Below are positions 1,738-39,338 of a stretch of DNA of 42,240 nt, one piece after another. The DNA comes from a virus. A model generated the notes under the pieces. It was given only the letters and a program-made list of their open reading frames with translations. It was not told the DNA's origin and did no database searches. Every line of letters begins with the position of its first letter. Positions within the stretch are counted from its first letter, which is position 1. The stretch lies in UHGV virus genome UHGV-0128348. One strand, written 5' to 3'. Position numbers and translations under genes: made by a program.

Positions 1738-1739
1738 TT

Positions 1740-2144: not shown

Positions 2145-2174
2145 TAAGTTTATCGCCGGTTTCCCGGCGCTCCA

Positions 2175-2879: not shown

Positions 2880-2895
2880 TGCAGCCTCCATAAAT

Positions 2896-2926
2896 GAAAA
2901 AACCGCCAGCGGCGGTCAGATTGGAT
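2896..2926 (-). terminator. rho-independent terminator/attenuator upstream of major tail gene
   Basis: Minus-strand hairpin ACCGCCGCTGGCGGT followed by TTTTTT. Confidence 0.45.
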
Positions 2927-2935
2927 TGGTTCCTG

Positions 2936-15012: not shown

Positions 15013-16302
15013 TTACAACTCTCGGTAAGCTGGTTGCAAAGCTTCACACCATTGTCTTAAAGTCGAAGCTCTTCGTTTCTTAGTTTTATCGCTAAGCGAT
15101 AAGCACATATCAAACAAAAAAGGCTCCGCCGTTGTGGGATCTAGCTCTGAAAGATTTTTTGCCTGGCTCCATTGTATCCAAGCCCAACCACAATGACTGG
15201 CCTCAAAACCACGAGCCGCAATTCTTAATCTCTTTTCATGATCAGATTCAGCTAATTGTTGTCCCATTGCAGAGATTGAACCATTTTCATTAAGTAAACC
15301 TAGTATTTTACCTGCGTGTATATAGTACAGTATATGGCGAGTATCCAACCCTGTACTAATTAGATCGAGATATATCCCCTTCCATTTTAACTCTACAACT
15401 TTAAAAACTTGATCAATTAAATTTGCTTGGGGCACCTGATAACCGCCAACAACCTGGGCAGACATCTTAGCCAAAGCTGTTGAGTAAAACTCAGCATCCG
15501 TTTTTCGAACCGTTAATACAATCTCATCTGTATAGTTATTTTTCAATTCAAAACTTGAACTTGTATTAACAACAGAGTCAAATAAAGCCGAAAGCATTTG
15601 AACATCAATCTTATTATTTTTAATAAAACTAACTATATCACCCTTAAGACGAATCAGATCATTTAGCTCTTTTAATAACGGCTCTACTGTCTGCATTTTC
15701 TCTGCCTGAAAAGAAAGCACAAAAGATCCAGGGCGACCCGCCACTGGTCGCATCAAGTCCTTTTCATCAAAAGAGTTAATTATAGATGAATATAAGTTAT
15801 TGAAACATTCGAATAATTTAGAAACACCACTTAGTACTAATGGGTCCGTAGATGACTTAGTTTTCTCCACATGTATTTCATGCGTTGAAAACTCAATTGC
15901 CTTGCCTATTTTACCATTAGCTAAAACAGGCAGTACAGAGCTTATAAACAATCCACTTTGTGGCAAAGTCATGTTGTTAGATACTTCAGACGAATCTAAA
16001 GCCAATGCTACAACACGCTCATCCTCATAAAAAATATCTAACTGATAGTATTTCTTTTGTTCTTGGTGCATTAGAACGCTACGAATATCTATTCTTTTTC
16101 TTTCCAAAGATTCTAAGCGTTCAGCAGATATAGGAATGATGATCCACTTTTCGAAGTCATCAAAGTCCCCTAACCAATAAACAACAAAGAGACTATTTAT
16201 CTCATTAGTCACTGAGAAAAATTTTGGACCTTCGAAAAACTCATAGACATTTTCGTATTTTAGTTCACCAAACACGCTGTCTTTAAGGAAGATGTTACTC
16301 AT
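15013..16302 (-). CDS. hypothetical protein, 429 aa, second gene of AT-rich two-gene cassette
   Basis: Long ORF with low GC; 4-nt overlap with upstream gene; no Walker A or other motif I recognise. Confidence 0.65.
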   Translation of the reverse strand: MSNIFLKDSVFGELKYENVYEFFEGPKFFSVTNEINSLFVVYWLGDFDDFEKWIIIPISAERLESLERKRIDIRSVLMHQEQKKYYQLDIFYEDERVVALALDSSEVSNNMTLPQSGLFISSVLPVLANGKIGKAIEFSTHEIHVEKTKSSTDPLVLSGVSKLFECFNNLYSSIINSFDEKDLMRPVAGRPGSFVLSFQAEKMQTVEPLLKELNDLIRLKGDIVSFIKNNKIDVQMLSALFDSVVNTSSSFELKNNYTDEIVLTVRKTDAEFYSTALAKMSAQVVGGYQVPQANLIDQVFKVVELKWKGIYLDLISTGLDTRHILYYIHAGKILGLLNENGSISAMGQQLAESDHEKRLRIAARGFEASHCGWAWIQWSQAKNLSELDPTTAEPFLFDMCLSLSDKTKKRRASTLRQWCEALQPAYREL

Positions 16303-16745
16303 TTATCCAACCTCCTTATACAAACGAATTTGGCATGAACCTGAGATTCGTTGTAAAGCCATATTGTGTAGTGAGTTGAATCAGGAGCTCCAGTTTTTAG
16401 AATAACACCGTCATTAGCTGCAAACTCACCCTGAGCAACAAATCGCTCTCCAATACCATCAGGAAACTTATTAAAGGCATTAATAATTGAATTTTCATCA
16501 GTATAAACTGATACGCCATAACAACATTTTAGCTTATGCCCTTTAAATTTTTTTAATCGTTTAGGATTTTCATCTTTCATATTCAAAAAGCACTGATCCC
16601 CTGGAGGATTTGCCTTTGTAAGACGAAAGAATACACCTGAAGCATCTTGCGCTTCCTTAGGTGGAGTGCCCGCAGGGAAGTCCGCGGGAAACGTTAACGA
16701 TTTTTTATTTTTTGTCGTTTGCTGTGAGATTTGAGTCATGTCCAT
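16299..16745 (-). CDS. hypothetical protein, 148 aa, first gene of AT-rich two-gene cassette
   Basis: ORF preceded by about 300 bp of very AT-rich sequence; no signal peptide; no recognisable domain. Confidence 0.6.
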   Translation of the reverse strand: MDMTQISQQTTKNKKSLTFPADFPAGTPPKEAQDASGVFFRLTKANPPGDQCFLNMKDENPKRLKKFKGHKLKCCYGVSVYTDENSIINAFNKFPDGIGERFVAQGEFAANDGVILKTGAPDSTHYTIWLYNESQVHAKFVCIRRLDK

Positions 16746-17058
16746 AATCCAAGACGATTAACAGAAAAACTGCCAATCACTTTGGTAAATCAGGACAATC
16801 CGTTGGCATTAGATGCAATATAGCAACAAGTAAACACTTCATAAATGCCATTTGGTTATATAAAGAATGACTTAACAACTCCATTTGTTATAAATGCTAT
16901 ATATTGATAGTTGAGCATATTTAGGCACTAAATATGTCCAATTACTGTTAATTGGCTATGTATATATTGAACCTATTCCCCGAGCTCCACATAAGTTCCG
17001 TTTCGTGGAGCCGATACCGACGGTTTTGCACCGGAAGAATCTTCGCGGGAGTATGTAG

Positions 17059-17131
17059 TGCTGGTTGACGGAACTGAACCGCCTACATCCTGCTTACAAG
17101 GCAGGCGCTCTCCCAACTGAGCTAACCCAGC
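17059..17131 (-). tRNA. tRNA-like gene, anticodon UGU (Thr), with non-canonical features
   Basis: Minus-strand cloverleaf: acceptor GCTGGGT, D-arm GCTCAGTTGGGAGAGC, anticodon stem CCTGC/GCAGG with loop CTTGTAA, T-arm GGCGG-TTCAGTT-CCGTC; G6-A67 mismatch; G at position 58; no encoded CCA. Confidence 0.5.
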
Positions 17132-18171
17132 AAATTACGCATTTCCATGACCGTTTGATCAAATCGCTCGGTTTCCAGTTCAACACCGATTCCACTCCGC
17201 CCGAGCAGAGCAGCTTGCTTTAGTGTGGAACCCGAACCAGCAAAGAAATCAGCTACGACATCCCCTGGCCAACTGCTTGCAGTAATGATCTGCTGAAGCA
17301 TATCGGCAGGTTTTTCGCATGGGTGCTTACCTGGATAAAACTGAACCGGCTTATGTGTCCAGACGTCGGTATATGGCACCGTGACCGACACGCTAAATGG
17401 GCGCCGTAACCGGTAATACTCCTGCTGAAGTTCAGAATACTTCCGGTTAAGTGATTGCCAGGTAGCGACAAGCTGGTGGTGAGGTTTTCCCAGTTCGTTG
17501 CGTGAGTGCTTATCCATGGCGATTTTTTGAAACAAAGCCTGCAACTTCAAATAATCGGCTTCATTCGGCAGTTGCCACTGGCTAAGGCCAAACCAGTGGG
17601 AAACCATATTTTTTTTACCCGTGGCTTCTGCAATCTGGGCCGACGTCACGCCAAGAGATTCCCGGGCATCCCGGAAGTAAGAAATTAAAGGCGTCATGAC
17701 GTGTTGCTTTAACTCATTACACTTTGCGGCATATCCATCGTCTTTGGGCCTGTATGGCCCCTGATAATGGTCGGCAAAAATGATACGCTCAGTTGCGGGG
17801 AAATAAGCGCGTAAGCTCTCCTTATTGCAGCCGTTCCATCGCCCTGATGGCTTAGCCCAGATGATATGGTTGAGCAAGTTAAACCGCTCTCTCACCAACA
17901 GCTCAATATCCGCTGCCAGGCGTTGCCCACAGAAGAGATACATGCTGCCGGCAGGTTTTAACACTCGCCAGAACTGTGCCAGACAGCTATCCAGCCAACG
18001 TAAATAGTCCTCGTCCCCCTTCCATTGGTTATCCCAGCCGTTTGGCTTCACCTTAAAATAAGGCGGATCGGTAACAATAAGATCAATGGAGTTATCGGGT
18101 ATCGATGGGAGGTATTGCAGGCAATCAGCATTGATTAATTCAATACTGGATATTTTTACAGTATTTTTCAT
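17122..18171 (-). CDS. DNA N6-adenine methyltransferase (DPPY motif, Dam-like phage methylase)
   Basis: 349-aa ORF with N-terminal ...LIVTDPPYF... and C-terminal ...FFAGSGSTL... AdoMet motif; last 10 nt overlap the tRNA-like gene. Confidence 0.8.
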   Translation of the reverse strand: MKNTVKISSIELINADCLQYLPSIPDNSIDLIVTDPPYFKVKPNGWDNQWKGDEDYLRWLDSCLAQFWRVLKPAGSMYLFCGQRLAADIELLVRERFNLLNHIIWAKPSGRWNGCNKESLRAYFPATERIIFADHYQGPYRPKDDGYAAKCNELKQHVMTPLISYFRDARESLGVTSAQIAEATGKKNMVSHWFGLSQWQLPNEADYLKLQALFQKIAMDKHSRNELGKPHHQLVATWQSLNRKYSELQQEYYRLRRPFSVSVTVPYTDVWTHKPVQFYPGKHPCEKPADMLQQIITASSWPGDVVADFFAGSGSTLKQAALLGRSGIGVELETERFDQTVMEMRNLLG

Positions 18172-18320
18172 AGATCAGTAAGCTTAACTCTGATAGGCTC
18201 ACTTTGCTTTTGCGCTAAAGCAGTGGGCCGTGGTTAGCTTGTGACCTGAAAGCATGAGCTGATGGCTGGTCGGGTGCTACAACACCCACCAGCCGCCCAT
18301 TTTCACAGCAAAAACCCCCA

Positions 18321-18512
18321 TTACTGAAGGCGCTTATAACATCCGAACTGATAATCAGATAACCCCGCCATTACCAGCTGCGTAAGTATGAGCTGGCAGC
18401 GTTCGCGGCTCAGGTGAGTATTCTGAGCAATCTCCCCAGCCGTAGCCGGTTTGTCACTTAACTCATCAAAAACAGCCTTGGCTGTTTCCGTCATATCTTG
18501 CTGATTTAGCAT
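18321..18512 (-). CDS. hypothetical small protein (possible HTH)
   Basis: ORF 18321..18572; likely start ATG 18512 with GAGGT RBS; first ORF after the late terminator. Confidence 0.4.
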   Translation of the reverse strand: MLNQQDMTETAKAVFDELSDKPATAGEIAQNTHLSRERCQLILTQLVMAGLSDYQFGCYKRLQ

Positions 18513-18611
18513 GTCTTTTACCTCAAATAAGTGGTGTGACATACAGATAACTCTGGTGACGGTATCCAGCAAGAACTAATTGAAAGAGAAGAAGATTTTA
18601 TCGATTTTAGC

Positions 18612-18640
18612 CCATAAAAAAACCCGCTCGCTGGCGGGTT
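18612..18640 (-). terminator. late terminator (tR'-like) downstream of Q
   Basis: Strong hairpin AACCCGCCAGCGAGCGGGTT followed on the minus strand by T7. Confidence 0.6.
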
Positions 18641-18722
18641 AATCAACGTTGAACATACAAAGCCCATCGTTATAGATAAAATTACACAAAAGCGGCAACT
18701 TTGCAAGTAACGTGTCGCTAAA
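18641..18722 (-). promoter_or_regulatory. putative late promoter (pR'-like) with Q-utilisation region
   Basis: Minus-strand TTGCAA -N16- TAATTT between Q stop and the terminator; assigned by lambdoid analogy. Confidence 0.4.
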
Positions 18723-19553
18723 TTATGCGATATTTATCAAATCAGAAACCTTTGTCACACATTTAAGTTGTGAGTCGGTATAACTCTCTTCCTCAAAGCA
18801 TTTTGTAACCAGACTTTCATAGAAAGGTTTCCAGCTGTATCGCCAGGTTCGTTCTGGCAGACCAGGCAGCTCAGAGAGCATACCCCTGTAAGCATTTGAA
18901 GACTTAGGACGACTATAACCGCGGCCTTCACAACGTTTACATACTTTGTAGACAGGCACTCCCTGCATCTCTGACTCTTTACGGTCCAGGGTTTTTCCCG
19001 TACCGCCACACTGGCATCGCTTGCTGATTTTCCCGGTGCCGCCGCATTTGAAGCAGAGAACATGGTCAACCTCTTCCACCTGACGTTTTACTTCAAAATC
19101 CGAAGGTGACTGCCCGAGGTCTTTTGCCCATTGCGGTAATCTCATTTTGTAGTGGCTTTTTTCCACCATTGAGGTTTTTTTTATGAAGCCTGAACCAGAA
19201 CACTTCCTGCAATCTACGCTGTCAGCTGCAGACGAGGCATAGTCGTTATAAGCGAACCGAGCTATTATCAGCATACACAGCGGGAACTTCTTCCCTGCTG
19301 CTTTTCTTATCGATCGAGGCGCTTTTGATTTTGCATATTCAGCCAACCAACTGACGGATGCCTTTCTGTCGTGTTCGCTGATTCCAGCTTTACCCAAAAA
19401 CATTGACAGGCCTATTCCTGCCTCTGCCTGTGTCATCCCCAGAGCGGCCATTACATCTGTCACAGTGAGTTGCTCGCTGGCGGTTGCACGACCGCTATCG
19501 GAAATATGCATTCCTTTGGGCGCGAAAAATTTGGGAATTGATTCAATATTCAT
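18723..19553 (-). CDS. late antitermination protein Q-like
   Basis: ORF 18723..19571 begins with GTG; likely ATG start at 19553; paired CxxC motifs (CRKCSGSG, CFKCGGTG, CQCGGTG, CKRCEGRG); upstream of late terminator. Confidence 0.65.
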   Translation of the reverse strand: MNIESIPKFFAPKGMHISDSGRATASEQLTVTDVMAALGMTQAEAGIGLSMFLGKAGISEHDRKASVSWLAEYAKSKAPRSIRKAAGKKFPLCMLIIARFAYNDYASSAADSVDCRKCSGSGFIKKTSMVEKSHYKMRLPQWAKDLGQSPSDFEVKRQVEEVDHVLCFKCGGTGKISKRCQCGGTGKTLDRKESEMQGVPVYKVCKRCEGRGYSRPKSSNAYRGMLSELPGLPERTWRYSWKPFYESLVTKCFEEESYTDSQLKCVTKVSDLINIA

Positions 19554-19571
19554 GCTCAGTACTCCATACAC

Positions 19572-20627
19572 TCAAGCTTTTACAATGACGCCGACACCCA
19601 TTACCCGATCCAGAAAACGAGCCCACAGCTCTAACTGAGTGCCATATTTCTTTTCGAACTCTGATGTATTGGCGTGTAATTCATCGTGATGCACTCTGCA
19701 CAGTGGTATCACGAAGAGATCATGGGCCTTTGTTGCGGTACCTCCCAGACCATTCCCTATTATATGGTGTGGATCGTCTGATGGTTGCCTACAGCATTCA
19801 CATGGCTGAGTTTTAACCCAACGTGTGTAAACTTCGCAGGTCCAGCGCCGGCGCTTTGGGCGGCGCATAAATGATTCGGGGCTGTTCGGATCGACACTAA
19901 GCCTCAGAATGGGTTTACTTTCAATCTGAGGTTGCTCAATGAGTACGCTGGCGTCCGCCAGGTCTATGCCCTCAACAAGATCCTGAAGGATTTCACCTGC
20001 AGCAAATGACGGGACAATATCGCTATCCTTATAAACGGACAGGAAAGGTTCCTCAGGCAGTCTTAAGGCCTGTTGCGCCATCGTCTCGGTTATTGCGTCA
20101 GCAATGCCGGATTTCACAGCCCACCAGCAGAGCTCCGCCATAGATAATTCGCGCTCCTTATTGTATCCAAGGCTGATCAACACCCTTTCAATCACCCACT
20201 GAACCAGATTCTGATAAGCCAGCTCTGACAACATTTCGGTGGTCTGCTCACGTAATTCATTATCACAATGCCAGCAGACAACCATGGCGCCAGGCGGATG
20301 CCGCATAGTCACTAATTCATGGTGGTGATAGTGGGAATGCGGGTACTGGCACTCTCTGACATGTCGTAGAAGCCAGGCCTCAAGAGCGTTAATTCCACCC
20401 GCTGCGTTAATAACCCTCTCATCCCTCATAAAAAAACGCAGAATGTCCATTTCTGCAAGCGGCTGACGTGCATCGGCGATCCGCCCAGTGGGCAGTGTTT
20501 TCATCTTCTCTGGCTGACGCTCTATCAGGACACGACCGCCGGTAAAGAGAGACATCAATTCGCGGCCTGGTTTGAAAAGAACAACGCCCAGGCGCGGCAC
20601 AATTTCCGGAGTAAGCAATGCTCGCAC
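19572..20627 (-). CDS. DUF968-like phage protein (nin-region)
   Basis: 351-aa ORF with C-terminal ...PHHIIGNGLGGTATKAHDLFVIPLCRVHHDELH... motif. Confidence 0.6.
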   Translation of the reverse strand: MRALLTPEIVPRLGVVLFKPGRELMSLFTGGRVLIERQPEKMKTLPTGRIADARQPLAEMDILRFFMRDERVINAAGGINALEAWLLRHVRECQYPHSHYHHHELVTMRHPPGAMVVCWHCDNELREQTTEMLSELAYQNLVQWVIERVLISLGYNKERELSMAELCWWAVKSGIADAITETMAQQALRLPEEPFLSVYKDSDIVPSFAAGEILQDLVEGIDLADASVLIEQPQIESKPILRLSVDPNSPESFMRRPKRRRWTCEVYTRWVKTQPCECCRQPSDDPHHIIGNGLGGTATKAHDLFVIPLCRVHHDELHANTSEFEKKYGTQLELWARFLDRVMGVGVIVKA

Positions 20628-20635
20628 AATCCCCC

Positions 20636-21166
20636 CTAAACAGTCAGATCTTTAAGCTTCTGCACGGCTTTACCAACTTCAGCCATAGCATCTACGAACT
20701 CGTCAAACTTCCTGCTGGCCATTCCATATGCCTGGAGAATCTCCAACTTCAAGGGATCGAGCTGTTTCTTAATTTCTGCACGATCTCCGGCTTTTTTCTC
20801 CGCTTCCTCTGCCGCTTTGATCAAGGCGTCAGCCTGTTTACGTAATGCTTCCGGAGTTACTTCGAGCTGTTTATTCATTTTGCATTCCATCGTCGGCTGA
20901 GGAGGTGTCATTACAGGCGCCACAGATTTGTGACCATATTTAGGGTGGTGCAAGGTAGTAGACCTTCCATCATCTATCACGAAGAGCAGCCCGCTTTCCC
21001 GGATAATATCAATCAGAGTCTCTTTGTCTTTTCGATTGAGCCCGCTATATGCCGCCACTTTGTGCGTCAGGTGGGTTAGCGTTGCGCCTTCTGGTTGCTT
21101 CTCTACAAAACGCTTTACCCTGGAGAGAACTGGTTGCAGGTGTGGAGGTATCATTCTCATGTTCAC
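20636..21166 (-). CDS. hypothetical protein
   Basis: 176-aa ORF with coiled-coil-like C-terminus. Confidence 0.5.
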   Translation of the reverse strand: MNMRMIPPHLQPVLSRVKRFVEKQPEGATLTHLTHKVAAYSGLNRKDKETLIDIIRESGLLFVIDDGRSTTLHHPKYGHKSVAPVMTPPQPTMECKMNKQLEVTPEALRKQADALIKAAEEAEKKAGDRAEIKKQLDPLKLEILQAYGMASRKFDEFVDAMAEVGKAVQKLKDLTV

Positions 21167-21169
21167 CCC

Positions 21170-22012
21170 TTACTGCGTGACAACGCCAATGAGCTTTAAA
21201 AGCTCAGGAAATTTCGATTCGAAGAAGTGCGGTTGCGTCTCACGTGGATTTGCCGGGCTGGTGATGTTTTTACCGTACAGACAACCTTTTGCCGTAACAG
21301 ACCAGAATCTTTTCACGCCATTGATACCCGTTCGGCTGCGACGCTCCTTCTGCTCGACTACGCCGTGACCAGCCATAAGGTGATAAGCCTGGTTCGCGGT
21401 CATTCTGATGTTGTTAGCTTTAAGCAAAGCGCTAAGAGACAGCGTTGGTCTGCTGGAACCATCCTGCGCGCCAGCTGGTGCATCAATGGCATATGAAGGC
21501 ATTAAATCAGGCAGCCCTGCTACCTGCTGAAGCTTCTGATATGCCCCGAGCTTTGACGAATTAGAGAGATTGAGCATTTTGGCTGCAGATTCCAGGAGGA
21601 TTATGCCAGCCTGAATGCGATCGGTATTGACGGTTGCAGCCCCAGCAGTGTGGAGCGCGTCAAACGTTCTGATGACCTTCAGATTAAAAACAGCGCTGAT
21701 CCACATCGCGTAGGCATACACCAACTCACGGCAAACATAGGTACCTTGCTCATTTCCGCCGCGGATGACACTTACAGGTTCTGAAATATCCGAGTTGCTA
21801 TTTTGCAACTCGCCTATCAATTGCGCAGTTTGTTCGTTACGGAGCCAGAATGCAGGCTTATGGCGGTCAAGGGAGCCGGAAGCACGATGGAGATCGTTTA
21901 GGCAATAACGACCAAGGACATCACGACGAACAGAAATACCATCAATAACAAAAAAAGTGTGATTATTGGATGCAGCAGCACCCATGACGTGGTTAGTCAT
22001 AGCTTTCTCCAT
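21170..22012 (-). CDS. KilA-N domain protein (antirepressor-like)
   Basis: 280-aa ORF with N-terminal ...FFVIDGISVRRDVLGRYCLNDLHRASG... KilA-N-like region. Confidence 0.65.
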   Translation of the reverse strand: MEKAMTNHVMGAAASNNHTFFVIDGISVRRDVLGRYCLNDLHRASGSLDRHKPAFWLRNEQTAQLIGELQNSNSDISEPVSVIRGGNEQGTYVCRELVYAYAMWISAVFNLKVIRTFDALHTAGAATVNTDRIQAGIILLESAAKMLNLSNSSKLGAYQKLQQVAGLPDLMPSYAIDAPAGAQDGSSRPTLSLSALLKANNIRMTANQAYHLMAGHGVVEQKERRSRTGINGVKRFWSVTAKGCLYGKNITSPANPRETQPHFFESKFPELLKLIGVVTQ

Positions 22013-22085
22013 ACATTTTTATGTGACGAAGGGCCTGCACGCCCGAGTTGGCACTCTTTGACATTACTGCCATATCGGCGAACTT

Positions 22086-22484
22086 TCAACCCACAGCTGT
22101 ACATGTATCCACCACTTTTTGATAGCAGACTATGGTGATTTCTACCCTACCTCCTTCGACGATTTCACCCCATTCAATAGCCATACGCTTAACCTGGTTG
22201 TCGTCCTCCCAGATACCGGCATAAGTCAAAGCATCAAGAAGTGCCTTGTTGTAATTGTCCAGGTCACGCCGGCGATAGTCTGGCGGATAGAGAATAATTT
22301 CTACAGCTGCTGGCGCGGTAGATGGTTTTGGTATTGCACGCAGTTGCTCAATGATCGCTGACCGTACTGCATGTTTGAATTTACGGCCGGCTGCGCTGAC
22401 AAGGTGTTTACCTTTTGAGGGCCCCTTGTTTGGGGACCGCCAGTAGGTGTTCACGCTGGGTGGGAATGGAAGAATAAATTTCAT
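22086..22484 (-). CDS. rusA: Holliday junction resolvase RusA
   Basis: 132-aa ORF MKFILPFPPSVNTYWR...DLDNYNKALLDALT... matching RusA hallmarks. Confidence 0.8.
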   Translation of the reverse strand: MKFILPFPPSVNTYWRSPNKGPSKGKHLVSAAGRKFKHAVRSAIIEQLRAIPKPSTAPAAVEIILYPPDYRRRDLDNYNKALLDALTYAGIWEDDNQVKRMAIEWGEIVEGGRVEITIVCYQKVVDTCTAVG

Positions 22485-22957
22485 TCAGCCTCCAGCACTA
22501 TCTTCAACTCAAACGGAACATCTCCTCCGCAATAGCAGAGCGGGCCAAGGTCAGACATAAGGCTCCACAGGGTCATTGACGTATAGCCATTTTCGTCTGT
22601 TACCGGGGGCGAAAAGTCCCCGAAGATCCTCGGGTGCTGGATTCGATTCTGCTCGTGTTGTTTTTCCAAATGTCTGAGGGAGACTTCATTAAGTTTCACT
22701 TTTACGATGCTGTTGAGATTGACCGATATTTCTCTGGCCAACAGCGAAGGGGTGATACTGATACCGCGAGAAACCCCGCGGGTAATCTTGATGGCCCCTT
22801 TTCTCTCCAGCGCCTTGAGGTGCGTTGCTGCTGCATTGGGGGACCGGCACCCCAGCATTCCGGTCAGTTCGTAAGTTGTAGGCGGAAAACCATGTTTACG
22901 CTGATATTCGATCAGGAGGTCCAGGACCTCCTGCTGCCTTAAGGTCAAGGAAGTCAT
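22481..22957 (-). CDS. LexA-like winged-helix DNA-binding protein with uncharacterised C-terminal domain
   Basis: ORF 22481..22984; likely ATG 22957 overlapping the C5-MTase stop (ATGA); ...LTLRQQEVLDLLIEYQRKHGFPPTTYELTGMLGCRSPNAAATHLKALERKGAIKI... resembles LexA N-terminal DBD. Confidence 0.55.
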   Translation of the reverse strand: MTSLTLRQQEVLDLLIEYQRKHGFPPTTYELTGMLGCRSPNAAATHLKALERKGAIKITRGVSRGISITPSLLAREISVNLNSIVKVKLNEVSLRHLEKQHEQNRIQHPRIFGDFSPPVTDENGYTSMTLWSLMSDLGPLCYCGGDVPFELKIVLEAE

Positions 22958-24936
22958 GCTGCCTGCTCCTCTCTGTTCACGCACATTTCGGGTAAGTTGG
23001 CGCGTACCAGCGCTTCGGCGAACGGCGGCGGGACGGCATTGCCACAGCGCGCGACCTGCTTATCTTTCGCGTATTTCACGCCGCGGTAATCCTGGTCAAT
23101 GATGTACCACTCCGGAAAGCCCTGCGCCCGGTAGAGCTCGTGCGGCTGCAGCATGCGCATGCCGATATCAACGATTCGGTAAGTCACCCCGCCAATTTCC
23201 ACCAGTCCGGTGCTATCCTTCCCGCAGTATTCCTGCAGGAACGCCAGCACCTGCTGCGCGCGCTCGTCGTCGTAGTCCTCGACCGCCAGGGTCGTTTTAA
23301 CCTCCCCCACGTGCTGGCCGCCAGCAGTGATAGTCGGCATCGGCTCGTCAGTAGTCTGGCCGTCACGGCAAGTACCGCGCAGTTTAACCAGATGAGAAGC
23401 GACTAATGCGTGGTGATCGACAGTCGTTACTGAATGCGCTGGCTCATCCAGCCCCACGCCGGCGCCCTGATAATTCCCACCGTAGTGTTTTGCCAGGAAC
23501 GCACCAACTACGGCATGTTTCCCACCACCAGCCACAACAGTTCCTAGCGGCTTATCCAGTCCTGGCACGCGAGGAGCCTGGCCGGGCCGTTCTCCGTATC
23601 CCATTTGAATGAGCGTCGGCACAACCAGCTGCGATTTACCGCCGCCGCCCGCGGTGATTGTTGCGCTTGGTTCATCGGCACGGTGTCCGACGCTGGCGCC
23701 AAACTGACGAGCGATGACCGGCGCAACAACACAAGCTCGTGACTCTTTCAGGATGGTGTGAGCGGGTTTATCGAGCGGGCGTGGTTTAGCCTGGTACTCG
23801 CTGCCGCCATTGCCAGCCAGGAACGGAGCCAGCTCTGCTTCAACAATACCCATAGCGTGACCATTCCCGCCCGGGCGTTTTGCGGTACCGGCCGTCACCG
23901 TCGGCAACGGATCGGTGACTTCCTGCCCGGTAGCTCCGGTTCGGAATTTTGTCAGATGAGGTACCGCAATTGCGTAGCCGTGGGTTTTCGTAATCGTCTG
24001 TAGCGGATCGTCCAGCGCCTGTCCCCGGAAACAGTCATATTTGCCACGTGTCGTTGTGTGATTGCACTTCACGATGAATGGCGAAGCACTTTCGATAACA
24101 AAGCGCTGAATGCCGCGGGCAATCCGTTTTAGCGTATTCTCTGCCAGTGACTTTTTGCGACCGAAGATGCTCGGCGCGGGGATTGACCAGTCTATGCATT
24201 CCGCAGCTGTACGCCACGGCTCAAGCTGGCCCGCCAGCACGGCGGCAGACTTCGGATCCCCGTGCGTGGCTTCCGGCCAGACTATCGGTTTCCCGTCCCG
24301 GCGCATCACCATGAAGAACCGCTTACGGATGGTCGGCGCGCCATAATCGCAGGCGCGCAGCTCGCGAAAATCGACGACATAACCCAGCCCGGCAATTAAG
24401 CGCTTGGCCTGCTCGCTATCCGGTGAAAACTCCAGAAACTCGCAACACTCCACCAGTGCAGGATGATCTGCTGGAATACCGGTGGTAAGCATCCCGACAA
24501 ATGCATTGAAAGTTTCACCGATGCGTGCCGGATCCGGTCGCATTTCTGCCGCGAGTAACGGACCCCACGTCTTAAACTCTTCGACGTTTTCCAGCATCAT
24601 GACTCGCGGGCCAACATCCAGCGCCCAACGAATGACGATCCATGCCAGCCCTCGAATATCTTTCTCTACTGGTTTAGCACCTTTCGCTTTAGAAAAGTGA
24701 CGACAGTCAGGCGAGAACCATGCCAGGCCGACAGGCTTACCACTGGTAGCGGCTAATGGGGATACATCAAACACACTTTCGCAATAGTGAAGCGTGTCGG
24801 GATGGTTAGTGCGGTGCATAGCAACGGCGTTAACATCGTGGTTAATCGCGATATCAACGCTACGCCCTATCGCCAGCTCAATACCTGTACTGGCGCCACC
24901 GCCACCAGCAAAATTATCGACAATAATCTCACGCAT
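22954..24936 (-). CDS. DNA (cytosine-5)-methyltransferase with long repeat-containing variable region
   Basis: 660-aa ORF; motif I FAGGGG, PC-type FSPDCRHFS, ENV (MLENVEEF), motif X RCGNAV; seven D(E/K)P..T(I/V)TAGG-like repeats between them. Confidence 0.8.
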   Translation of the reverse strand: MREIIVDNFAGGGGASTGIELAIGRSVDIAINHDVNAVAMHRTNHPDTLHYCESVFDVSPLAATSGKPVGLAWFSPDCRHFSKAKGAKPVEKDIRGLAWIVIRWALDVGPRVMMLENVEEFKTWGPLLAAEMRPDPARIGETFNAFVGMLTTGIPADHPALVECCEFLEFSPDSEQAKRLIAGLGYVVDFRELRACDYGAPTIRKRFFMVMRRDGKPIVWPEATHGDPKSAAVLAGQLEPWRTAAECIDWSIPAPSIFGRKKSLAENTLKRIARGIQRFVIESASPFIVKCNHTTTRGKYDCFRGQALDDPLQTITKTHGYAIAVPHLTKFRTGATGQEVTDPLPTVTAGTAKRPGGNGHAMGIVEAELAPFLAGNGGSEYQAKPRPLDKPAHTILKESRACVVAPVIARQFGASVGHRADEPSATITAGGGGKSQLVVPTLIQMGYGERPGQAPRVPGLDKPLGTVVAGGGKHAVVGAFLAKHYGGNYQGAGVGLDEPAHSVTTVDHHALVASHLVKLRGTCRDGQTTDEPMPTITAGGQHVGEVKTTLAVEDYDDERAQQVLAFLQEYCGKDSTGLVEIGGVTYRIVDIGMRMLQPHELYRAQGFPEWYIIDQDYRGVKYAKDKQVARCGNAVPPPFAEALVRANLPEMCVNREEQAA

Positions 24937-25882
24937 GAGCGGTCCCCCTCATGCTGCCGACCAGCCCACCAGCAACGGTGATGATTTCGCTGGTGGGCAC
25001 GCGCTCCAGCCACAACTGGTTAATGTGGGCCTTCAGCTTGTTCTGCTGGGAGAACTCCAGATCCTCTGCGCCTTGTACCTGTCCAAAGACGAGTCCAACT
25101 TCCAGTGGCCAGATCCGGGATTCAGGCTCAGCCAATGATGCAACAGCATCGGGGATGATCACTTCAGGAGACTGAACTGGCGAAACTGGTGACAGGAATT
25201 TTCCTGCAGCAAACTCAGCCAGCGCCATACTTGCGCGCCCTTTTGCTTCCAGCTCAACGCGATCGATATAGCTAAAATGTTCACCGCGCCAGGTCTTATC
25301 AAATACCGCAATGGCCCCGGCAAAGAATGCGCTGGTGGGCTTCTGCTTTTCGTCGGCCGGCACAAACCACGTTGGGAGATCGAATCCAATACGACCACGA
25401 ATAAACATGATGTGATCGGCATATTCCGGCCACCATGTTTCACTTGTTGCTGACTTCACGAGGTAAATGTAACGACCACCCTTTTCACGCTGCTCGGCGG
25501 TATAGTTCATAATATGAGTCATGCCAGTGATGGCTTGTTTTTCATGGTACTGCGAACGGCTGTACGGCGGATTAGCAAAGGCCGCTCCTCCGAGTTCTAC
25601 CAAACGACCAGACCAGTCCTGCGTCAGCGCATTATCTTCAGCGGTATACCATGCCGGACATTTTGTATTGCTGTCGTCTGCAAACAGGTCCAGTACCAGC
25701 GGGCCAAACATAGCGTTAACGCCCCAGAACAGCAGATCAGGGGTACGCCATTGATCCCCGACTTCTTTTAAATAATGCGCACTACGCTGGCGCTGTTCCT
25801 CAAGTGCCAGGCAATAAGGGCTGACGGTTTTAGTTAAAGTTTGCTCTTCTGCGGTCATAGCTTCTTGTACTTCCTGACTCAT
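24929..25882 (-). CDS. phage N6-adenine DNA methyltransferase (NPPY motif)
   Basis: 317-aa ORF with ...AFANPPYS... motif; overlaps C5-MTase start by 8 nt. Confidence 0.65.
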   Translation of the reverse strand: MSQEVQEAMTAEEQTLTKTVSPYCLALEEQRQRSAHYLKEVGDQWRTPDLLFWGVNAMFGPLVLDLFADDSNTKCPAWYTAEDNALTQDWSGRLVELGGAAFANPPYSRSQYHEKQAITGMTHIMNYTAEQREKGGRYIYLVKSATSETWWPEYADHIMFIRGRIGFDLPTWFVPADEKQKPTSAFFAGAIAVFDKTWRGEHFSYIDRVELEAKGRASMALAEFAAGKFLSPVSPVQSPEVIIPDAVASLAEPESRIWPLEVGLVFGQVQGAEDLEFSQQNKLKAHINQLWLERVPTSEIITVAGGLVGSMRGTAHA

Positions 25883-26073
25883 AGTTTTCCCCTGCGCTGA
25901 TCAGCATCAACAAGTGCTCTCAGTAACCAGTAACGGCGATCAAAGCTGAAAAGGTCATCTCTGAGGAGTGCGTATTTTCTGCGAAAAATAACGTCGTGCT
26001 GCCACCAGTAACGCCAGTGATGCAAACGCACAAGGCGCCGGAGACTTATCAAAATCTTCTTCAATCGGAGCAC
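25879..26073 (-). CDS. hypothetical small basic protein
   Basis: 64-aa Arg/Trp-rich ORF in overlapping operon context; weak. Confidence 0.3.
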   Translation of the reverse strand: MLRLKKILISLRRLVRLHHWRYWWQHDVIFRRKYALLRDDLFSFDRRYWLLRALVDADQRRGKL

Positions 26074-26519
26074 AAGTCACCTCCGCAGTAATTTCCTGCC
26101 AGATAGCATGACCCGGCGGAATCATTCATGTTTCTGGCGTTTCGAACAGAAGCATTCTTAAGACGCAGGTACCGCTCTCTTGCTTTAGCCGTACAGTTGC
26201 TGTCACAAAGTTGCTGCCATACCGTCGCCGCACGGCGGTAATAGCGTTTCTCTTCCAGCTTTTTGGCTGTCGCTTCAAGGGCAAGAATCTCCCCCGAAAG
26301 CCCACCAGGCAGGTACTCTTCAATATCGATGGATCCCGCTACGAAGTAGATAAACCCACCAGTAACTTCAACGCTGGCAAGTTCCCCGTCGTAGTACAGG
26401 CGATGAACAGCGCTCTTCACTGTTACCGGTTTGGTTTCAGGAAATGCCGCAGTGATATCGCGCAGCATTTTGCCTGGATTCTTCTCAATAAATTCAAAGA
26501 TCGACTTGGCTATGTTCAT
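26061..26519 (-). CDS. hypothetical protein (possible PerC-like C-terminal region)
   Basis: 152-aa ORF directly downstream of replication initiator gene. Confidence 0.45.
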   Translation of the reverse strand: MNIAKSIFEFIEKNPGKMLRDITAAFPETKPVTVKSAVHRLYYDGELASVEVTGGFIYFVAGSIDIEEYLPGGLSGEILALEATAKKLEEKRYYRRAATVWQQLCDSNCTAKARERYLRLKNASVRNARNMNDSAGSCYLAGNYCGGDLCSD

Positions 26520-27427
26520 CCCCGGAACCCCCGTGGAATAGTGGTTTGTACTGGACTAATTGAATTAACATCCCGCGGTCTGGTTTTGTCCCACAACTCC
26601 CTTGGCGGGCGGCCTTTGGCATCCCAACGGATAGCGCTTTGCAGATATCCCTCGAATTTTTTAGGGCCGAAAAGTGTCTCGGGTCGCATGTACTGGTATT
26701 GCTCGTCGTTGCCATGCCAGTGCTCATGCTTAACGTCGATTACCAGTTTCAAGTCGCTAACGGTATGACCTTCGCGGAGGCGGGCGCGAATGTTCTCCAG
26801 TGAGGTCTTAGATTTCTGGTAACGGGAACCGCTGACCAGATTCAGGTGTGCCAGAACTTCGATCGCGTTATCGGTAATAACAACTTCAGGATCCGGCTTA
26901 TCGTCGGGTTCCGCAGGAGCCCGACAAGAAGGTTTTTTAGATGACGGATCTAATGACGGATCTAATGACGGATCGCCTTCAACCATTGAGGGGTCCTCCC
27001 GCAATATTTGAGGGGGTACAGACCCATTATTTGAGGCATCAGAATTTGACCCCTCAAATTTTGAACCCTCAAATTCTGAGGCATCAAATTTTGATTGTTC
27101 ACGTGGCGTTGCGTAGAAGATTTTTGCTTCAGCTGCTGCACGTTCCAGCATGTCAACATTGAGTTTATAAACGTTCGAATTATTCTTTCCGCCCACGCGC
27201 CGTTCCTGCTTCTTCAGCCAGCCTTTAGCCTGAAGCTTTTTGATAGCGCTGCGGACAGTATTCTCGCTCTTTGCGCCGATCTGTCGCTGAATAGTGGTTA
27301 CCGCTGGCCATGACACCCCTTCGTCATTACTGAAGTCTGCCAGGCGAGCCATGACCGCTATTTCAGAGATTATCAGCCCTTTGAAAGCGCATGCTTCCCA
27401 TACGAGGCCGTGTAATTTACTGCTCAT
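26516..27427 (-). CDS. replication initiator (lambda O-like; N-terminal HTH, conserved phage C-terminus)
   Basis: 303-aa ORF; N-terminal ...WPAVTTIQRQIGAKSENTVRSAIKKLQAKGWL...; central low-complexity linker encoded by iteron-like repeats. Confidence 0.7.
   Translation of the reverse strand: MSSKLHGLVWEACAFKGLIISEIAVMARLADFSNDEGVSWPAVTTIQRQIGAKSENTVRSAIKKLQAKGWLKKQERRVGGKNNSNVYKLNVDMLERAAAEAKIFYATPREQSKFDASEFEGSKFEGSNSDASNNGSVPPQILREDPSMVEGDPSLDPSLDPSSKKPSCRAPAEPDDKPDPEVVITDNAIEVLAHLNLVSGSRYQKSKTSLENIRARLREGHTVSDLKLVIDVKHEHWHGNDEQYQYMRPETLFGPKKFEGYLQSAIRWDAKGRPPRELWDKTRPRDVNSISPVQTTIPRGFRG
26941..27094. repeat. putative origin of replication: tandem 12-bp repeats plus iteron-like inverted/direct repeats inside the O-like gene
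   Basis: ATGACGGATCTA x3 (26941..26976); ATTTGAGGGGG / CCCCTCAAATT inverted copies and TGAGGCATCA(G)AATTTGA direct copies (27005..27094). Confidence 0.55.
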
Positions 27428-28580: not shown

Positions 28581-28584
28581 AACA

Positions 28585-28650
28585 CCTCCACAGTTTTATC
28601 TGTATTTTTGAACAGATACTACTGTTTGTCAATCACAGTTTAAACTGTGA
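28585..28650. promoter_or_regulatory. OR-like operator/promoter region between cro and cI
   Basis: Clustered palindromes ACAGTTTTATCTGT, ATCTGT-N8-ACAGAT, perfect CACAGTTTAAACTGTG. Confidence 0.6.
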
Positions 28651-28677
28651 CCATGAGGCCATGGGAATGGAGGAGCT

Positions 28678-29310
28678 ATGAGCCTTGCAGAACGCGTAAA
28701 ACAAAAAAGAATCGAACTTGGTCTTACTCAAGAGCAAGCAGCTGAAAAGGCAGGAATAAGGCAACAATCATGGGCCAGCATTGAGGATGGAAAAACTAAA
28801 AAGCCTCGCAACATAGTAGGAATAAGCAAAGCACTTAAGTGCGACCCAACATGGTTGATGAACGGTGGGCCTTTCATGGCTCTGGACGATGTGAATTCAA
28901 GGAAAGTACCTTTGATCAGTTACGTCCAGGCTGGAGCGTTAGCAGAAAAACACCCTATTGATGCATTTGATGGTAGCTTCGAATACATCATGACTGACCT
29001 TGATATTTCTGAGTTTACTTTTGCACTAAGGATAGAAGGTGATTCAATGGAGCCTGACTTTAAAGAAGGCGACATTATCATTGTTGATCCAGAGTTAGAG
29101 CCCGTTCCGGGCGAATTTGTTGTTGCTAAAAATGGTGAAAATGAGGCTACTTTTAAAAAGTACCGTCCTACATTTACCGATATTTCAGGCCGCCAGCAAT
29201 ATGAACTGGTCCCCCTTAATGACGACTACCCCACCATTAATAGCTCTGAACGCCCGTTGAAAATTATCGGCGTAATGGTCGAACATAGAATTTACAGGCG
29301 AAAAAGGTAA
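28678..29310 (+). CDS. CI-like repressor (HTH plus S24 LexA-type autopeptidase domain)
   Basis: 210-aa ORF; N-terminal HTH ...LGLTQEQAAEKAGIRQQSWASIEDG...; C-terminal ...GDSMEP... Ser and downstream Lys; GGAGG RBS. Confidence 0.8.
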   Translation: MSLAERVKQKRIELGLTQEQAAEKAGIRQQSWASIEDGKTKKPRNIVGISKALKCDPTWLMNGGPFMALDDVNSRKVPLISYVQAGALAEKHPIDAFDGSFEYIMTDLDISEFTFALRIEGDSMEPDFKEGDIIIVDPELEPVPGEFVVAKNGENEATFKKYRPTFTDISGRQQYELVPLNDDYPTINSSERPLKIIGVMVEHRIYRRKR

Positions 29311-36473: not shown

Positions 36474-36680
36474 ATGCTGAGCCTCGATTGTGTTCCCATC
36501 TCAACTTATTGCAAAGAGACAGGCGAAACCCCTGATGCCATAAATAAGCGCATCCAGCGCGGCGTATGGCGTGAAGGGGTACAGGTGCTAAAGGTCGAAG
36601 GCGTTAAGGAAAGATGGATAGATCTTAGTGAGGTTGCAAAATGGGCTCGACAAAATCGCCTAAACTCCCGCGCGGCGTAA
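36474..36680 (+). CDS. xis: excisionase
   Basis: Small basic ORF directly upstream of and overlapping integrase; start at second ATG with GGAG RBS. Confidence 0.55.
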   Translation: MLSLDCVPISTYCKETGETPDAINKRIQRGVWREGVQVLKVEGVKERWIDLSEVAKWARQNRLNSRAA

Positions 36681-37831
36681 CGATCAGGAAACATAGTACT
36701 GGGGAAACTATCAATATTACCTTTACCTATAAGGGGGTGAAATGCCGGGAACCTTTATCAAACCTTGAAATTAATAGCAAAAACATTAAATACGCCGAGC
36801 GAACACTCGGCGAAATTCACAATAAAATTGAGCGGGGTACATTCAATTATGGTGAACACTTTCCCCGTTCGGCACGACTTAAAATATTTGGTAATTCTTC
36901 AACAGGAAAAACGGTAAAAAATTATCTCGATGAATATCTTGTAATTTGTGAAACGAGAAAATTATCTCCCTCAACAATCGGCGGATATAAGAAATGTTTA
37001 AATGCTCTGGCATCACTTCACGTTTTTCCTGCCAGCGAATTAACACCTGCTGCTTTAAAAACATGGATCCAGAGTCAGAAAACGACATTAAAGACGATTA
37101 GGAACCAACTTTCATTCCTACGCTCAGCACTGGATGAAGCTGTGACTGATGGTGTATTGCAGATTAACCCTGTTTCACTGGTGACAGCCTCGCGCTACCA
37201 GAGTAGTAAAACCGAGGATGAAAGTGATTATATTGTTGATCCGCTTTCGCCAGCCGAGGTTGAAGCGCTTTTGCATGCCGCAGGTAACAAGCAGTGGGAA
37301 AACATATTCCGCTTTGCAATTGAAACCGGGCTACGTAGTTCTGAACTCTGCGCCCTCCGTTGGCGCGATATCGACTTTATCGGCAAAACAGCGCATGTGC
37401 AAAATGCCAGCGTAGTGGGGGTAATTAAGGGCACGAAAACTAAAGCTGGAACACGTAAAGTTGAGTTAACCGAAGAAGCCTTGTATGCCCTGACTTCTCA
37501 GAAGCCTTTCACCTTTATGAAAGATGCAACGATCTTTGAGGATCCTAAGACAGAAAAACCATGGGCGGGTGCCGATGCGATAAGAAAGAAAGCCTGGGTG
37601 CCAACTTTACGTAAAGCTGGGATCAGGTACCGTAATCCATACCAGACCAGGCATACGTTCGCGACCCGACATATAAGTCGTGGCGCTAACCTGTTCTGGC
37701 TGGCATCACAGATGGGACATAAAGGGCCAGAAATGTTGTTCAGGCATTATGGACGCTATCTGAAGGAGTATGACGGCAACACTGAAAAACGACCCAAGCT
37801 GGTCAGCGGTGGAACCTCAAAGGAGCCGTAA
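36641..37831 (+). CDS. int: tyrosine integrase (lambda Int family)
   Basis: 396-aa ORF with C-terminal catalytic region ...RHTFATRHISRGANLFWLASQMGHKGPEMLFRHYGRY...; adjacent att core. Confidence 0.85.
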   Translation: MGSTKSPKLPRGVTIRKHSTGETINITFTYKGVKCREPLSNLEINSKNIKYAERTLGEIHNKIERGTFNYGEHFPRSARLKIFGNSSTGKTVKNYLDEYLVICETRKLSPSTIGGYKKCLNALASLHVFPASELTPAALKTWIQSQKTTLKTIRNQLSFLRSALDEAVTDGVLQINPVSLVTASRYQSSKTEDESDYIVDPLSPAEVEALLHAAGNKQWENIFRFAIETGLRSSELCALRWRDIDFIGKTAHVQNASVVGVIKGTKTKAGTRKVELTEEALYALTSQKPFTFMKDATIFEDPKTEKPWAGADAIRKKAWVPTLRKAGIRYRNPYQTRHTFATRHISRGANLFWLASQMGHKGPEMLFRHYGRYLKEYDGNTEKRPKLVSGGTSKEP

Positions 37832-37993: not shown

Positions 37994-38090
37994 TTGCATG
38001 TGTGGTCATGATCTCTGTATGAATCTTGAGCATTATGTATCTTGTTTTGCACCGCGTTGCCTGAACGCTAAAAAAACAAGGTGCAAAAAC

Positions 38091-39338
38091 ATGCCTAAGG
38101 TATTGAAATCCCTAACCAATACCGAGATCGCTGCCGCCAAGCCGCAGAAGACCGAGTATATGCTGCGCGATGGCGACGGACTGGCGTTGTTGATTAAGCC
38201 ATCCGGCAGAAAGATCTGGTACTTCGAATACACTCCCCCGGCGCTGAAAAAACGGACCAAAATCAGCATTGGCCCCTATCCGGTAGTCACCCTCGCCATG
38301 GCGCGAGATTTCAGGTTGCAATACCGGCGTTTACTCGTGCAGGGCATCGACCCGCAGGCCCATCTGGAGCAGGTTGCAGAGGAGCAACGACTCCAGAATG
38401 AATGCACGCTGGAAAAAGTGGCAGAACAGTGGCTCAAAGAGAAAAAACGGACCAGCGATCTTAGCGAAGATCACGCCAAAGATGTCTGGCGCTCGCTGGA
38501 GATGCACGTCTTCCCTTCTCTGGGTAATACACCCGTTACCGAGATCCGTCCCAAAATGCTCAAGGAACACCTTACACCGCTGGAAGAACAGGGCATCCTC
38601 GAAACGCTGCGGCGGGTTATCTCACGACTCAATGAAATCTTCCGCTTCGCCATCTCCGAAGAGCTTATCGAGTTTAACCCAGCAGACAACCTGGTCGCCC
38701 GCTTTAAGAAACCGAAAAAGCAGAATATGCCCGCCCTTCACCCCAGCGAGCTGGGCAGGCTGATGCTGGCGCTATAGAACGCCTCTATCCGCAAGGAAAC
38801 CCGCTGCCTTATCGAATGGGAGCTACTGACCTGGGTTCGCCCCGGCGAAGCCGTCAGCGCCCGCTGGTGCGACATCGATATGAAAAAAGCGGAATGGCGC
38901 ATCCCCGATACTTTTATGAAGATGAACCGTTCGCACACGGTGCCGCTCAGCAAACAGGCGCTGCGCGTTCTTCAGGTTATGGAGCCCGTCAGTCGCCATC
39001 GCCCGTGGGTTTTCCCCAGTATCCGCAAACCACTGGAGCATATGCACCAGCAGACCGCGAACGCCGCGCTTATCCGCATGGGGTTCGGCGGCGAACTGGT
39101 CGCCCACGGCATGCGCAGCATCGCCAGGACCGCAGGAGCAGGTCATTTTCCCCGTGAAGTCCTGGAATCTGCGCTAGCACACCAGAAAGAAGACGAGATC
39201 GAAGCGGCCTACAACCGCAGCGACTATCTGGAACAAAGGCGACCGCTGATGCAGTGGTGGGGAAACTACGTTGATGCTGCCAGACGGCAGGCATTGCTCG
39301 GTGAAGAAGAACCGCTGCGGATCGTGGAAGGAGAATAA
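38091..39338 (+). pseudogene. P4-type (IntA-like) integrase interrupted by one in-frame TAG
   Basis: ORFs 37998..38777 and 38880..39338 share a frame; the frame is open across 38778..38879; only stop is TAG 38775..38777; N-terminus MPKVLKSLTNTEIAAAKP..., C-terminus ...YNRSDYLEQRRPLMQWW... Confidence 0.7.

Follow-up and report, generated by a model that had tools for sequence, protein, structure and literature searches.

Three solitary DNA methyltransferases in a lambdoid Klebsiella prophage: a probable anti-restriction set beside a LexA-like gene that accompanies RusA

Why should one prophage carry three DNA methyltransferases and no evident restriction endonuclease, and what has a LexA-like gene that overlaps one of them to do with their function? 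The question is raised by the virus genome UHGV-0128348, a stretch of 42,240 nucleotides (nt) that we refer to as the window and that is a lambdoid (SfV/mEp460-like) Klebsiella prophage with its right arm transcribed from the minus strand. The original prediction, made from this sequence, regarded all three enzymes as orphans serving layered anti-restriction and proposed that one of them, a cytosine-C5 methylase, is co-regulated with the LexA-like gene. We put a probability of about 0.68 on the view that the three methylases pre-protect packaged phage DNA from restriction, with no expression in lysogens and two waves of expression once the phage is induced or infects. Judged by its neighbors in related loci, the LexA-like gene belongs to the backbone and is coupled to the Holliday-junction resolvase gene rusA, not to the methylases.

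Three methylases of unrelated families

As had been described, the three methylase open reading frames (ORFs) are intact, carry their motifs, and belong to three unrelated families.

24929..25882, minus strand: phage N6-adenine methylase of the NPPY type, 317 amino acids (aa) (PF05869/TIGR01712), in the early-right (nin-like) operon
22954..24936, minus strand: cytosine-C5 DNA methyltransferase, 660 aa (PF00145)
17122..18171, minus strand: beta-class N6-adenine methylase of the DPPY type, M.EcoGII family, 349 aa (PF01555, E 4.5e-40)

The DPPY enzyme has the motif order of the beta class, with an N-terminal DPPY (residues 35-38) and a C-terminal FxGxG (FAGSG, 310-314), and its match to PF01555 (N6_N4_Mtase) covers residues 29-340. 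Aligned by BLASTP to M.EcoGII, for which the sequence and domain limits were taken from PMC11551740 (Table S1 for the sequence), it is identical at 263 of 349 positions (75%), with 87% positives and 2 gaps. The alignment runs end to end (residues 1-348) and takes in the central recognition domain (M.EcoGII residues 160-237). The two proteins share their length (349 aa) and the order of an N-terminal DPPY, a central helix-turn-helix recognition region, and a C-terminal FxGxG; the window enzyme differs in its host genus, Klebsiella, and in its last residues. Likewise, it is 76% identical to the enzyme of phage 1720a-02, which was named a close relative in the M.EcoGII paper (PMC5778455). M.EcoGII, known together with M.EcoGI from prophages of E. 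coli O104:H4 C227-11, is a non-specific beta-class DNA/RNA enzyme and, like the window enzyme, prophage-borne. It methylates adenine in any context and is silent in lysogens; constitutive expression is harmful to the cell, and the discoverers suggested that activation accompanies excision of the prophage (PMC5778455). Reconstructed ancestors of the M.EcoGII clade are active DNA/RNA adenine methylases, of which Anc291 and SUPREM are largely non-sequence-specific (PMC11551740). Given the extent of identity and the activity of these ancestors, the DPPY enzyme would be expected to methylate adenines without sequence specificity.

The C5 enzyme scores 70.1 bits against PF00145 (cut-off, 22) and contains motifs I, IV, VI, VIII, IX, and X in order (FAGGGG at residue 9, SPDC at 75, ENV at 116, TIRKR at 202, QGFP at 605, and GNAV at 632). 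Its motif IV reads SPDC, where PC is usual. In an alignment with 63 relatives (44-57% identical), Ser75, Pro76, and Cys78 are invariant and Asp77 is nearly so, and this conservation argues that the unusual motif does not reflect decay. In an AlphaFold2 (AF2) model, most of the core (residues 1-290 and about 590-650) reaches a predicted local distance difference test score (pLDDT) of 80-98, and Foldseek relates the model with a probability of 1.00 to 3g7u, DNMT1, M.HhaI, and M.HaeIII. The best match among solved structures, by sequence as well as by fold, is 3g7u, a putative DNA modification methyltransferase of prophage CP-933R, which has in common with the window enzyme the "DYGAPTIRxR" form of motif VIII. 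It differs in its length of 376 aa, its single short variable region, and its canonical PPC motif IV, and is about 21% identical.

The NPPY enzyme scores 146 bits against PF05869 (cut-off, 28.1) and 187.1 bits against the equivalog TIGR01712 (cut-off, 97.05), and its catalytic NPPY lies at residue 104. It is 68-78% identical to the "dam" products of SfV, mEp460, ST64B, and phiNP, and identity spans 62-78% when SfII, cdtI, and many Stx phages are included. As to its target, M.EcoVT2Dam is cited in bioRxiv 10.1101/173336 as acting on GATC. Orthology of the NPPY enzyme to M.EcoVT2Dam could not be established, and phage VT2-Sakai was absent among the matches listed at E <= 1e-60 (60 of 65 records). 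The overlap that had been claimed between the NPPY and C5 genes was borne out, the two ORFs sharing 8 nt (ATGCGTGA).

The naming and length of the PF05869 family deserve a comment. In many Klebsiella prophages the protein is 449-460 aa long (loci L005-L007 at 1659-3041), compared to 317 aa here, and RefSeq phage records name the family "phosphoadenosine phosphosulfate reductase." The PHROG of that name aligns with the NPPY enzyme through its methylase part alone (profile positions 280-490 of 495). The reductase name probably stems from fusion proteins and misdescribes the short 317-aa form.

None of the three enzymes appears to have a nuclease partner. Of the 40 prophage ORFs scanned against Pfam, and of the 10 scanned against PADLOC, none contained a restriction-endonuclease domain. 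The nuclease-type matches comprised RusA, a DUF968 protein with a weak HNHc_6 match, the nuclease domain of TerL, and a Rv2179c-like exonuclease in the left arm, besides the neighbor of the small terminase gene, an ORF that matches HNH weakly. The neighbors of each methylase vary between phages, with no conserved nuclease partner among them; for instance, the NPPY gene occurs without a C5 gene in mEp460/SfV. On the strength of the domain scans and the shifting neighbors, "orphan" is therefore the correct term for the three methylases. The claim that a restriction endonuclease partner is missing holds, and the cryptic nuclease for which a search of the flanks had been advised did not emerge in the scanned ORFs.

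This combination of enzymes is not peculiar to the window. We retrieved 80 IMG/VR loci with the alignment of the LexA-like protein and considered flanks of 4.5 kb. At least 22 of the 80 loci contain all three methylases; the true figure may be higher, since the DPPY gene falls at the limit of the flank considered. The same set also occurs, in the same relative positions, in phages Kp4866-6 (Klebsiella), phiNP (Citrobacter rodentium), and Flotzy and Eeyore (E. coli). Kp4866-6 is the closest sequenced relative, with 96% nt identity across 96% of positions 17000-26000; in phiNP the overlap between the NPPY and C5 genes is again 8 nt, and the PF05869 gene of Flotzy encodes a longer fusion protein. 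The early block of NPPY, C5, LexA-like, and RusA genes is widespread in Klebsiella genomes. That the three-methylase set recurs in related loci argues that it is an ordinary anti-restriction arrangement; a literature search returned nothing specific on a described Klebsiella prophage with three methylases.

The surrounding module is familiar as well. The nin region of SfV, mEp460, cdtI, SfII, and Stx2 phages has the same gene order and overlapping junctions (replication genes, PF05869 methylase, LexA DNA-binding domain, RusA, KilA-N, DUF968, Q, small ORF, and DPPY methylase). Relative to that module, identity is about 68% for the NPPY enzyme, about 78% for the DPPY enzyme, and 62% for the DNA-binding domain of the LexA-like protein. 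Two differences set the window apart: a C5 methylase gene separates the PF05869 methylase gene from the LexA-like gene, and the LexA-like protein has a different, longer C-terminal domain (158 aa versus 108 aa in total). The GC content of the C5 gene is 0.578, compared to 0.49-0.53 for the flanking genes, which is consistent with insertion of a cassette at the methylase/LexA-like junction. Thus, the C5 gene appears to be a higher-GC cassette placed between these two neighbors.

Expression and proposed role of the methylases

The timing with which the methylases might be expressed follows from their place in the right arm, for which the following features are relevant.

28678-29310, plus strand: CI-like repressor with an S24 peptidase domain
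Next in leftward order: three ACAG-N6-CTGT operators and Cro-like and CII-like genes
26516-27427, minus-strand arm: replication protein
18723..19571, minus strand: Q-type late antiterminator (PF03589, E 6.5e-45)
18614..18706, minus strand: putative late promoter leader and tR'-like intrinsic terminator (terminator scan)
18321..18542, minus strand: small winged-helix protein, about 73 aa (phrog_331, E 2.9e-33; weak winged helix-turn-helix matches in Pfam)
17058..17131, minus strand: tRNA-Thr (TGT) (ARAGORN; Rfam tRNA, 58 bits)

Leftwards from the immunity region, the order is replication protein, PerC-like activator, 64-aa ORF, NPPY methylase, C5 methylase, LexA-like protein, and RusA, followed by a KilA-N protein, a 176-aa ORF, the DUF968 (HNH-like) protein, Q, and a terminator-like hairpin. 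Beyond the hairpin lie the small winged-helix ORF, the DPPY methylase, tRNA-Thr, and a low-GC cargo of two genes, and past the cargo the holin and endolysin genes, the HNH gene, the terminase, and the head genes. The hairpin itself (18640-18621), a strong one detected in a terminator scan, is followed by a T run, and the segment 18614..18706 also holds a promoter-like pair, TTGCAA ... TAATTT, followed by AACCCGCCAGCGAGCGGGTTTTTTT; in Rfam it gives a sub-threshold, attenuator-like match. By analogy with lambdoid genome organization, this segment may represent PR'/tR', which would place the genes downstream of it under the control of Q. The DPPY gene, coming after Q and the terminator, is therefore probably a late gene, with an expression that would depend on Q. 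The division that had been drawn between an early-right position for the NPPY and C5 genes and a late position for the DPPY gene is right.

From this layout a two-wave scheme can be envisaged. In the lysogen, the S24-type CI repressor would shut the early operon and the terminator would block late transcription, so that all three methylases stay silent. Once the phage is induced or infects a new cell, the NPPY and C5 enzymes would be made first, from the early-right operon, in which they are flanked by the replication genes on one side and the block of LexA-like, RusA, KilA-N, DUF968, and Q genes on the other. The M.EcoGII-like DPPY enzyme would come in a second wave from the Q-dependent late "moron" slot. 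In Stx phages, the slot downstream of Q carries the toxin genes. The replicating phage DNA would become methylated at adenines and cytosines before packaging, and virions would bring into the next host DNA that withstands many of its Type I-III restriction systems. In this function the LexA-like gene has no part.

We infer the timing of expression, the enzymatic activity, the specificity, and the protective effect alike. Expression of modifying enzymes by temperate phages upon induction, as an anti-restriction measure, has been described and follows a "Trojan horse" logic (PMC12707154). With no cognate nuclease and with a DPPY enzyme so close to M.EcoGII, layered anti-restriction, as originally suggested, is the most plausible role. 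In a methylome study of 14 K. pneumoniae strains, the 5mC motifs were CCWGG and MTCGAK only; this would be compatible with prophage methylases that are silent in lysogens, if those strains carry such prophages.

Several considerations weigh against this role. An NPPY enzyme specific for GATC would repeat the work of host Dam, and its benefit would then be doubtful. Heavily methylated DNA is a target of Type IV (methylation-dependent) nucleases, which makes the net benefit host dependent. Furthermore, the C5 enzyme contains a series of tandem modules, discussed below, that have a pLDDT of 30-55 in the AF2 model built with 64 diverse relatives and thus permit no structural reading. Finally, some phage methylases serve replication or packaging, e.g., P1 Dmt at pac sites (PMC12707154).

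The last point leads to the alternative that survives best, although we regard it as considerably less probable: the three methylases might act mainly as phage-internal epigenetic, replication, or packaging factors that mark replicated DNA, time expression, or enable terminase cleavage. In P1, cleavage at pac depends on a Dam-type methylase encoded by the phage itself, and regulation of the viral cycle has been proposed for many orphan methylases (PMC12707154). In every related phage the NPPY gene directly follows the replication genes, and a GATC-type specificity, being redundant with host Dam for protection, would be easier to reconcile with an internal function. However, close relatives carry none, one, two, or three methylases on the same backbone; each enzyme is thus individually dispensable, which speaks against a function that the phage cycle requires. 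In addition, the family of the late enzyme is non-specific, which suits blanket protection better than site-specific regulation.

If the methylases protect packaged DNA as we propose, broadly methylated virion DNA would widen the host range across restricting Klebsiella strains, which bears on phage therapy and on gene transfer by transduction, and the M.EcoGII-like enzyme is a candidate reagent. Solitary phage methylases, the M.EcoGII family, and the gene order seen here are already documented or abundant in public sequences.

The LexA-like gene, the small winged-helix gene, and the search for a hidden nuclease

The original prediction connected the C5 methylase to the LexA-like gene on account of their overlap, which makes the downstream pair of genes relevant.

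22481..22957, minus strand: LexA-like protein, 158 aa (winged helix, residues 1-70, and a C-terminal domain of unknown fold)
22086..22484, minus strand: RusA Holliday-junction resolvase (PF05866, E 2.8e-16)

The relation to LexA is confined to the winged helix, which matches PF01726 (E 2.4e-20) and E. coli LexA residues 1-68 (E 5e-17). The protein lacks PF00717 (S24 peptidase), scores 63 bits against TIGR00498 (cut-off, 111), and has 90 C-terminal residues that do not align with LexA, and it is therefore not a LexA orthologue. Its recognition helix reads SPNAAATHLKAL, compared to SPNAAEEHLKAL in E. coli LexA. The ATG at 22957, giving 158 aa, fits homologues of 155-158 aa; the start in the ORF list was the GTG at 22984. 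From this ATG, which is preceded by an AGAGGAG Shine-Dalgarno sequence, the gene overlaps the C5 stop codon as ATGA, as had been noted.

Does this overlap signify joint control? The same ATGA joins the stop of the 64-aa ORF to the start of the NPPY gene and the LexA-like gene to the RusA gene, so that it represents normal operon packing and no special link. In the IMG/VR loci, the upstream neighbor of the LexA-like gene changes (C5 methylase in 43, PF05869 methylase in 21, PF02086 Dam in 6, and no methylase in 7 of the 80; the remaining 3 have no separately labeled LexA-like ORF), while RusA lies downstream in all 80. Moreover, neither phiNP nor Flotzy has a LexA-like gene beside its C5 methylase, and phiNP lacks RusA there as well. 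The claim of co-regulation is not upheld. The slot that directly precedes the LexA-like gene is a hotspot for methylase cassettes, and the LexA-like gene is, by this comparative reasoning, part of the backbone. In one metagenomic contig (P0169; locus L010:3145-3771), a LexA DNA-binding domain is fused to RusA in a single 208-aa ORF. Together with the invariant adjacency and the ATGA overlap, this fusion suggests that the non-cleavable LexA-type DNA binder and the resolvase are functionally connected. The Gordonia, Mycobacterium, and Pseudomonas phages, which are rich in the C5 family, are not among the taxa listed for matches of the LexA-like protein.

The same data bear on the stronger proposal that the LexA-like protein is a dedicated, C-protein-like transcriptional controller of the methylase upstream, which we consider very improbable. 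The stop/start overlap that inspired it is real, and a methylase (C5, PF05869, or PF02086) directly precedes the LexA-like gene in 70 of the 80 loci. Yet the gene persists where no methylase precedes it (7 loci), the NPPY-C5 pair persists in phiNP and Flotzy without it, the overlap is shared with two other junctions, and RusA, its sole invariant neighbor, is also its fusion partner. Classical controller genes, in addition, lie upstream of the genes they control, whereas this one lies downstream of the methylases. As a weaker side possibility, a non-cleavable protein with a LexA DNA-binding domain, paired with RusA, might act on SOS-like operators in lytic growth. The closest functional precedent that we found among characterized proteins, likened here by description, is gp6 of GIL01, a LexA homologue of a temperate phage that activates a late promoter (PMC6182141); GIL01 differs in being a Bacillus tectivirus. 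A literature search returned nothing specific on the LexA-like nin gene.

The winged-helix gene that truly travels with a methylase is the small ORF at 18321..18542. In 24 of the 26 other loci with the DPPY methylase (25 of 27 when the near-identical Kp4866-6 is counted), a homologue of this ORF precedes the methylase gene at a constant distance of about 153 nt, and phiNP and a K. quasipneumoniae prophage encode homologues of the small protein at 75-78% identity. The spacer of about 153 nt before the DPPY gene has no Rfam match and folds more stably than shuffled sequences (-57.6 kcal/mol; z, -2.7). Conceivably, the small winged-helix protein may control the DPPY enzyme, which may be toxic. 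Two corrections thus result, in that the LexA-like gene is the partner of RusA and the winged-helix gene linked to a methylase is the small ORF preceding the DPPY gene.

On its other side, the DPPY gene abuts tRNA-Thr, which overlaps the final 10 nt of the ORF. The C-terminal residues differ from those of M.EcoGII because of this junction, as if insertion of the tRNA had replaced the original 3' end of the gene. Between tRNA-Thr and the lysis genes lies the low-GC cargo (15013-16745, minus strand; GC, 0.37-0.38). Its two proteins match PD-T4-10_A (148 aa, E 1.7e-11) and PD-T4-10_B (429 aa, E 1.5e-5) in PADLOC, the latter protein also having a Pfam DUF6575 match and a weak DUF7226 match. From these matches, the pair is probably a prophage-borne anti-phage defense moron.

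The weakest alternative, that a methylase of the set belongs to a cryptic restriction-modification or defense system with an unrecognized nuclease such as the DUF968 protein, the product of the 176-aa ORF, or the PD-T4-10-like pair, can be set aside as most improbable: PHROGs calls the DUF968 family an HNH endonuclease, in line with its weak HNHc_6 match, and the PD-T4-10-like genes lie about 380 bp downstream of the DPPY gene, but the DUF968 gene is kept in loci without an early methylase, phiNP and the K. quasipneumoniae prophage (L008) have the holin gene directly after the DPPY gene and no PD-T4-10 genes, and no restriction-enzyme family matched any scanned ORF. With a GC content of 0.37-0.38, compared to 0.49 for the methylase, the PD-T4-10-like pair looks like a separate acquisition. 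A hidden restriction enzyme was rejected on both the domain scans and the comparative context.

The modular C5 family and minor observations

The sole unusual feature of the locus is a series of seven tandem modules in the C5 enzyme. They are 32-48 aa long (typically about 35 aa), occupy residues 307-564 between motifs VIII and IX, and follow a pattern of approximately D-[DEK]-P-x-x-T-[IV]-T, several residues, hydrophobic-V-x-x-x-L, and then G. The family to which this enzyme belongs is large, phage-borne, and uncharacterized, with members in Klebsiella, Pseudomonas, Vibrio, Gordonia, and Mycobacterium phages. A scan of 1.84 billion cluster representatives yielded 8380 clusters (50% identity) at E <= 1e-3 and 2572 at E <= 1e-30, and the family is present in 349 records of the phage collection, mostly Gordonia, Mycobacterium, Pseudomonas, Arthrobacter, and Vibrio phages. 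Lengths range from about 470 to 1100 aa among the best 150 representatives; the common form in Klebsiella and Raoultella prophages is 695 aa long and has eight modules.

The number of modules varies from one to nine across 150 diverse representatives, and their conservation is uneven. For modules 4-7, matches at 50% identity or above were obtained in 54-98 of 149 representatives, mostly in collinear order, whereas modules 1-3 are variable, with such matches in just 3-21 of the 149. These figures derive from best-match mapping; single-linkage clustering of 705 modules at 55% identity chained nearly all of them into one cluster and was uninformative.

A comparison with the multispecific C5 enzymes of the Bacillus phages SPR, phi3T, rho11s, and H2 is instructive. 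Those enzymes are, like the window enzyme, phage-borne and solitary, with short tandem modules between motifs VIII and IX, and each module in both has a core resembling P/S-x-T-[ILV]-T/S. In the SPR type, the tandem domains recognize targets and serve the same anti-restriction logic (PMC8936443, PMC12707154). The window enzyme differs in its larger size, in its motif IV (SPDC instead of PC), and in modules that lack a significant match: profiles of the modules searched with hmmsearch against the SPR, phi3T, rho11s, and H2 enzymes as a four-sequence database gave at most 4 bits (best E, 0.015), and a short PT[IL]T-like core is all that is shared. One may speculate that the modules are independent target-recognition units and that the family arose separately as a second kind of multispecific C5 methyltransferase, in which modules are gained or lost to tune the number of restriction sites that a temperate phage masks, but we hold this to be a tentative idea with the odds clearly against it. 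Nevertheless, the modular C5 family is the one element here that could hide something new and repay experiment.

Among the fold matches of the C5 enzyme is also PDB 8yf3, a DNA cytosine C5-carboxymethyltransferase; some enzymes of the C5-methylase-like fold transfer non-methyl groups. The domain scans of the window turned up no gene resembling a synthase of carboxy-S-adenosylmethionine (Cx-SAM), although no follow-up search was aimed at carboxymethylation. A further observation concerns phrog_29443 (273 positions), which aligns with residues 1-155 of the C5 enzyme and with residues 30-158 of the LexA-like protein. Since this family spans both proteins, some phage must have the two genes joined by a deletion, with inactivation of the methylase.

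SOS boxes were considered as targets of the LexA-like protein and rejected, the pattern CTGT-N8-ACAG with one mismatch giving 17 matches against 11.9 expected, i.e., no enrichment. The immunity intergenic region (28583-28678) contains three ACAG-N6-CTGT palindromes, at 28590-28603, 28612-28625, and 28635-28648. The gap between the first two forms an exact SOS-box core, CTGTATTTTTGAACAG (28600-28615), which overlaps the -10 element of a rightward promoter-like site; this exact match arises because two CI/Cro-type operators adjoin.

At the far end of the window, a second, truncated integrase gene (37998-38777, plus strand) lies beyond the prophage integrase gene (36641-37831) and is followed by an Abi_alpha abortive-infection gene (40257-41048, plus strand) with a GC content of about 0.41. 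The segment 37998-41048 looks like the remnant of another element integrated at the same attachment site.

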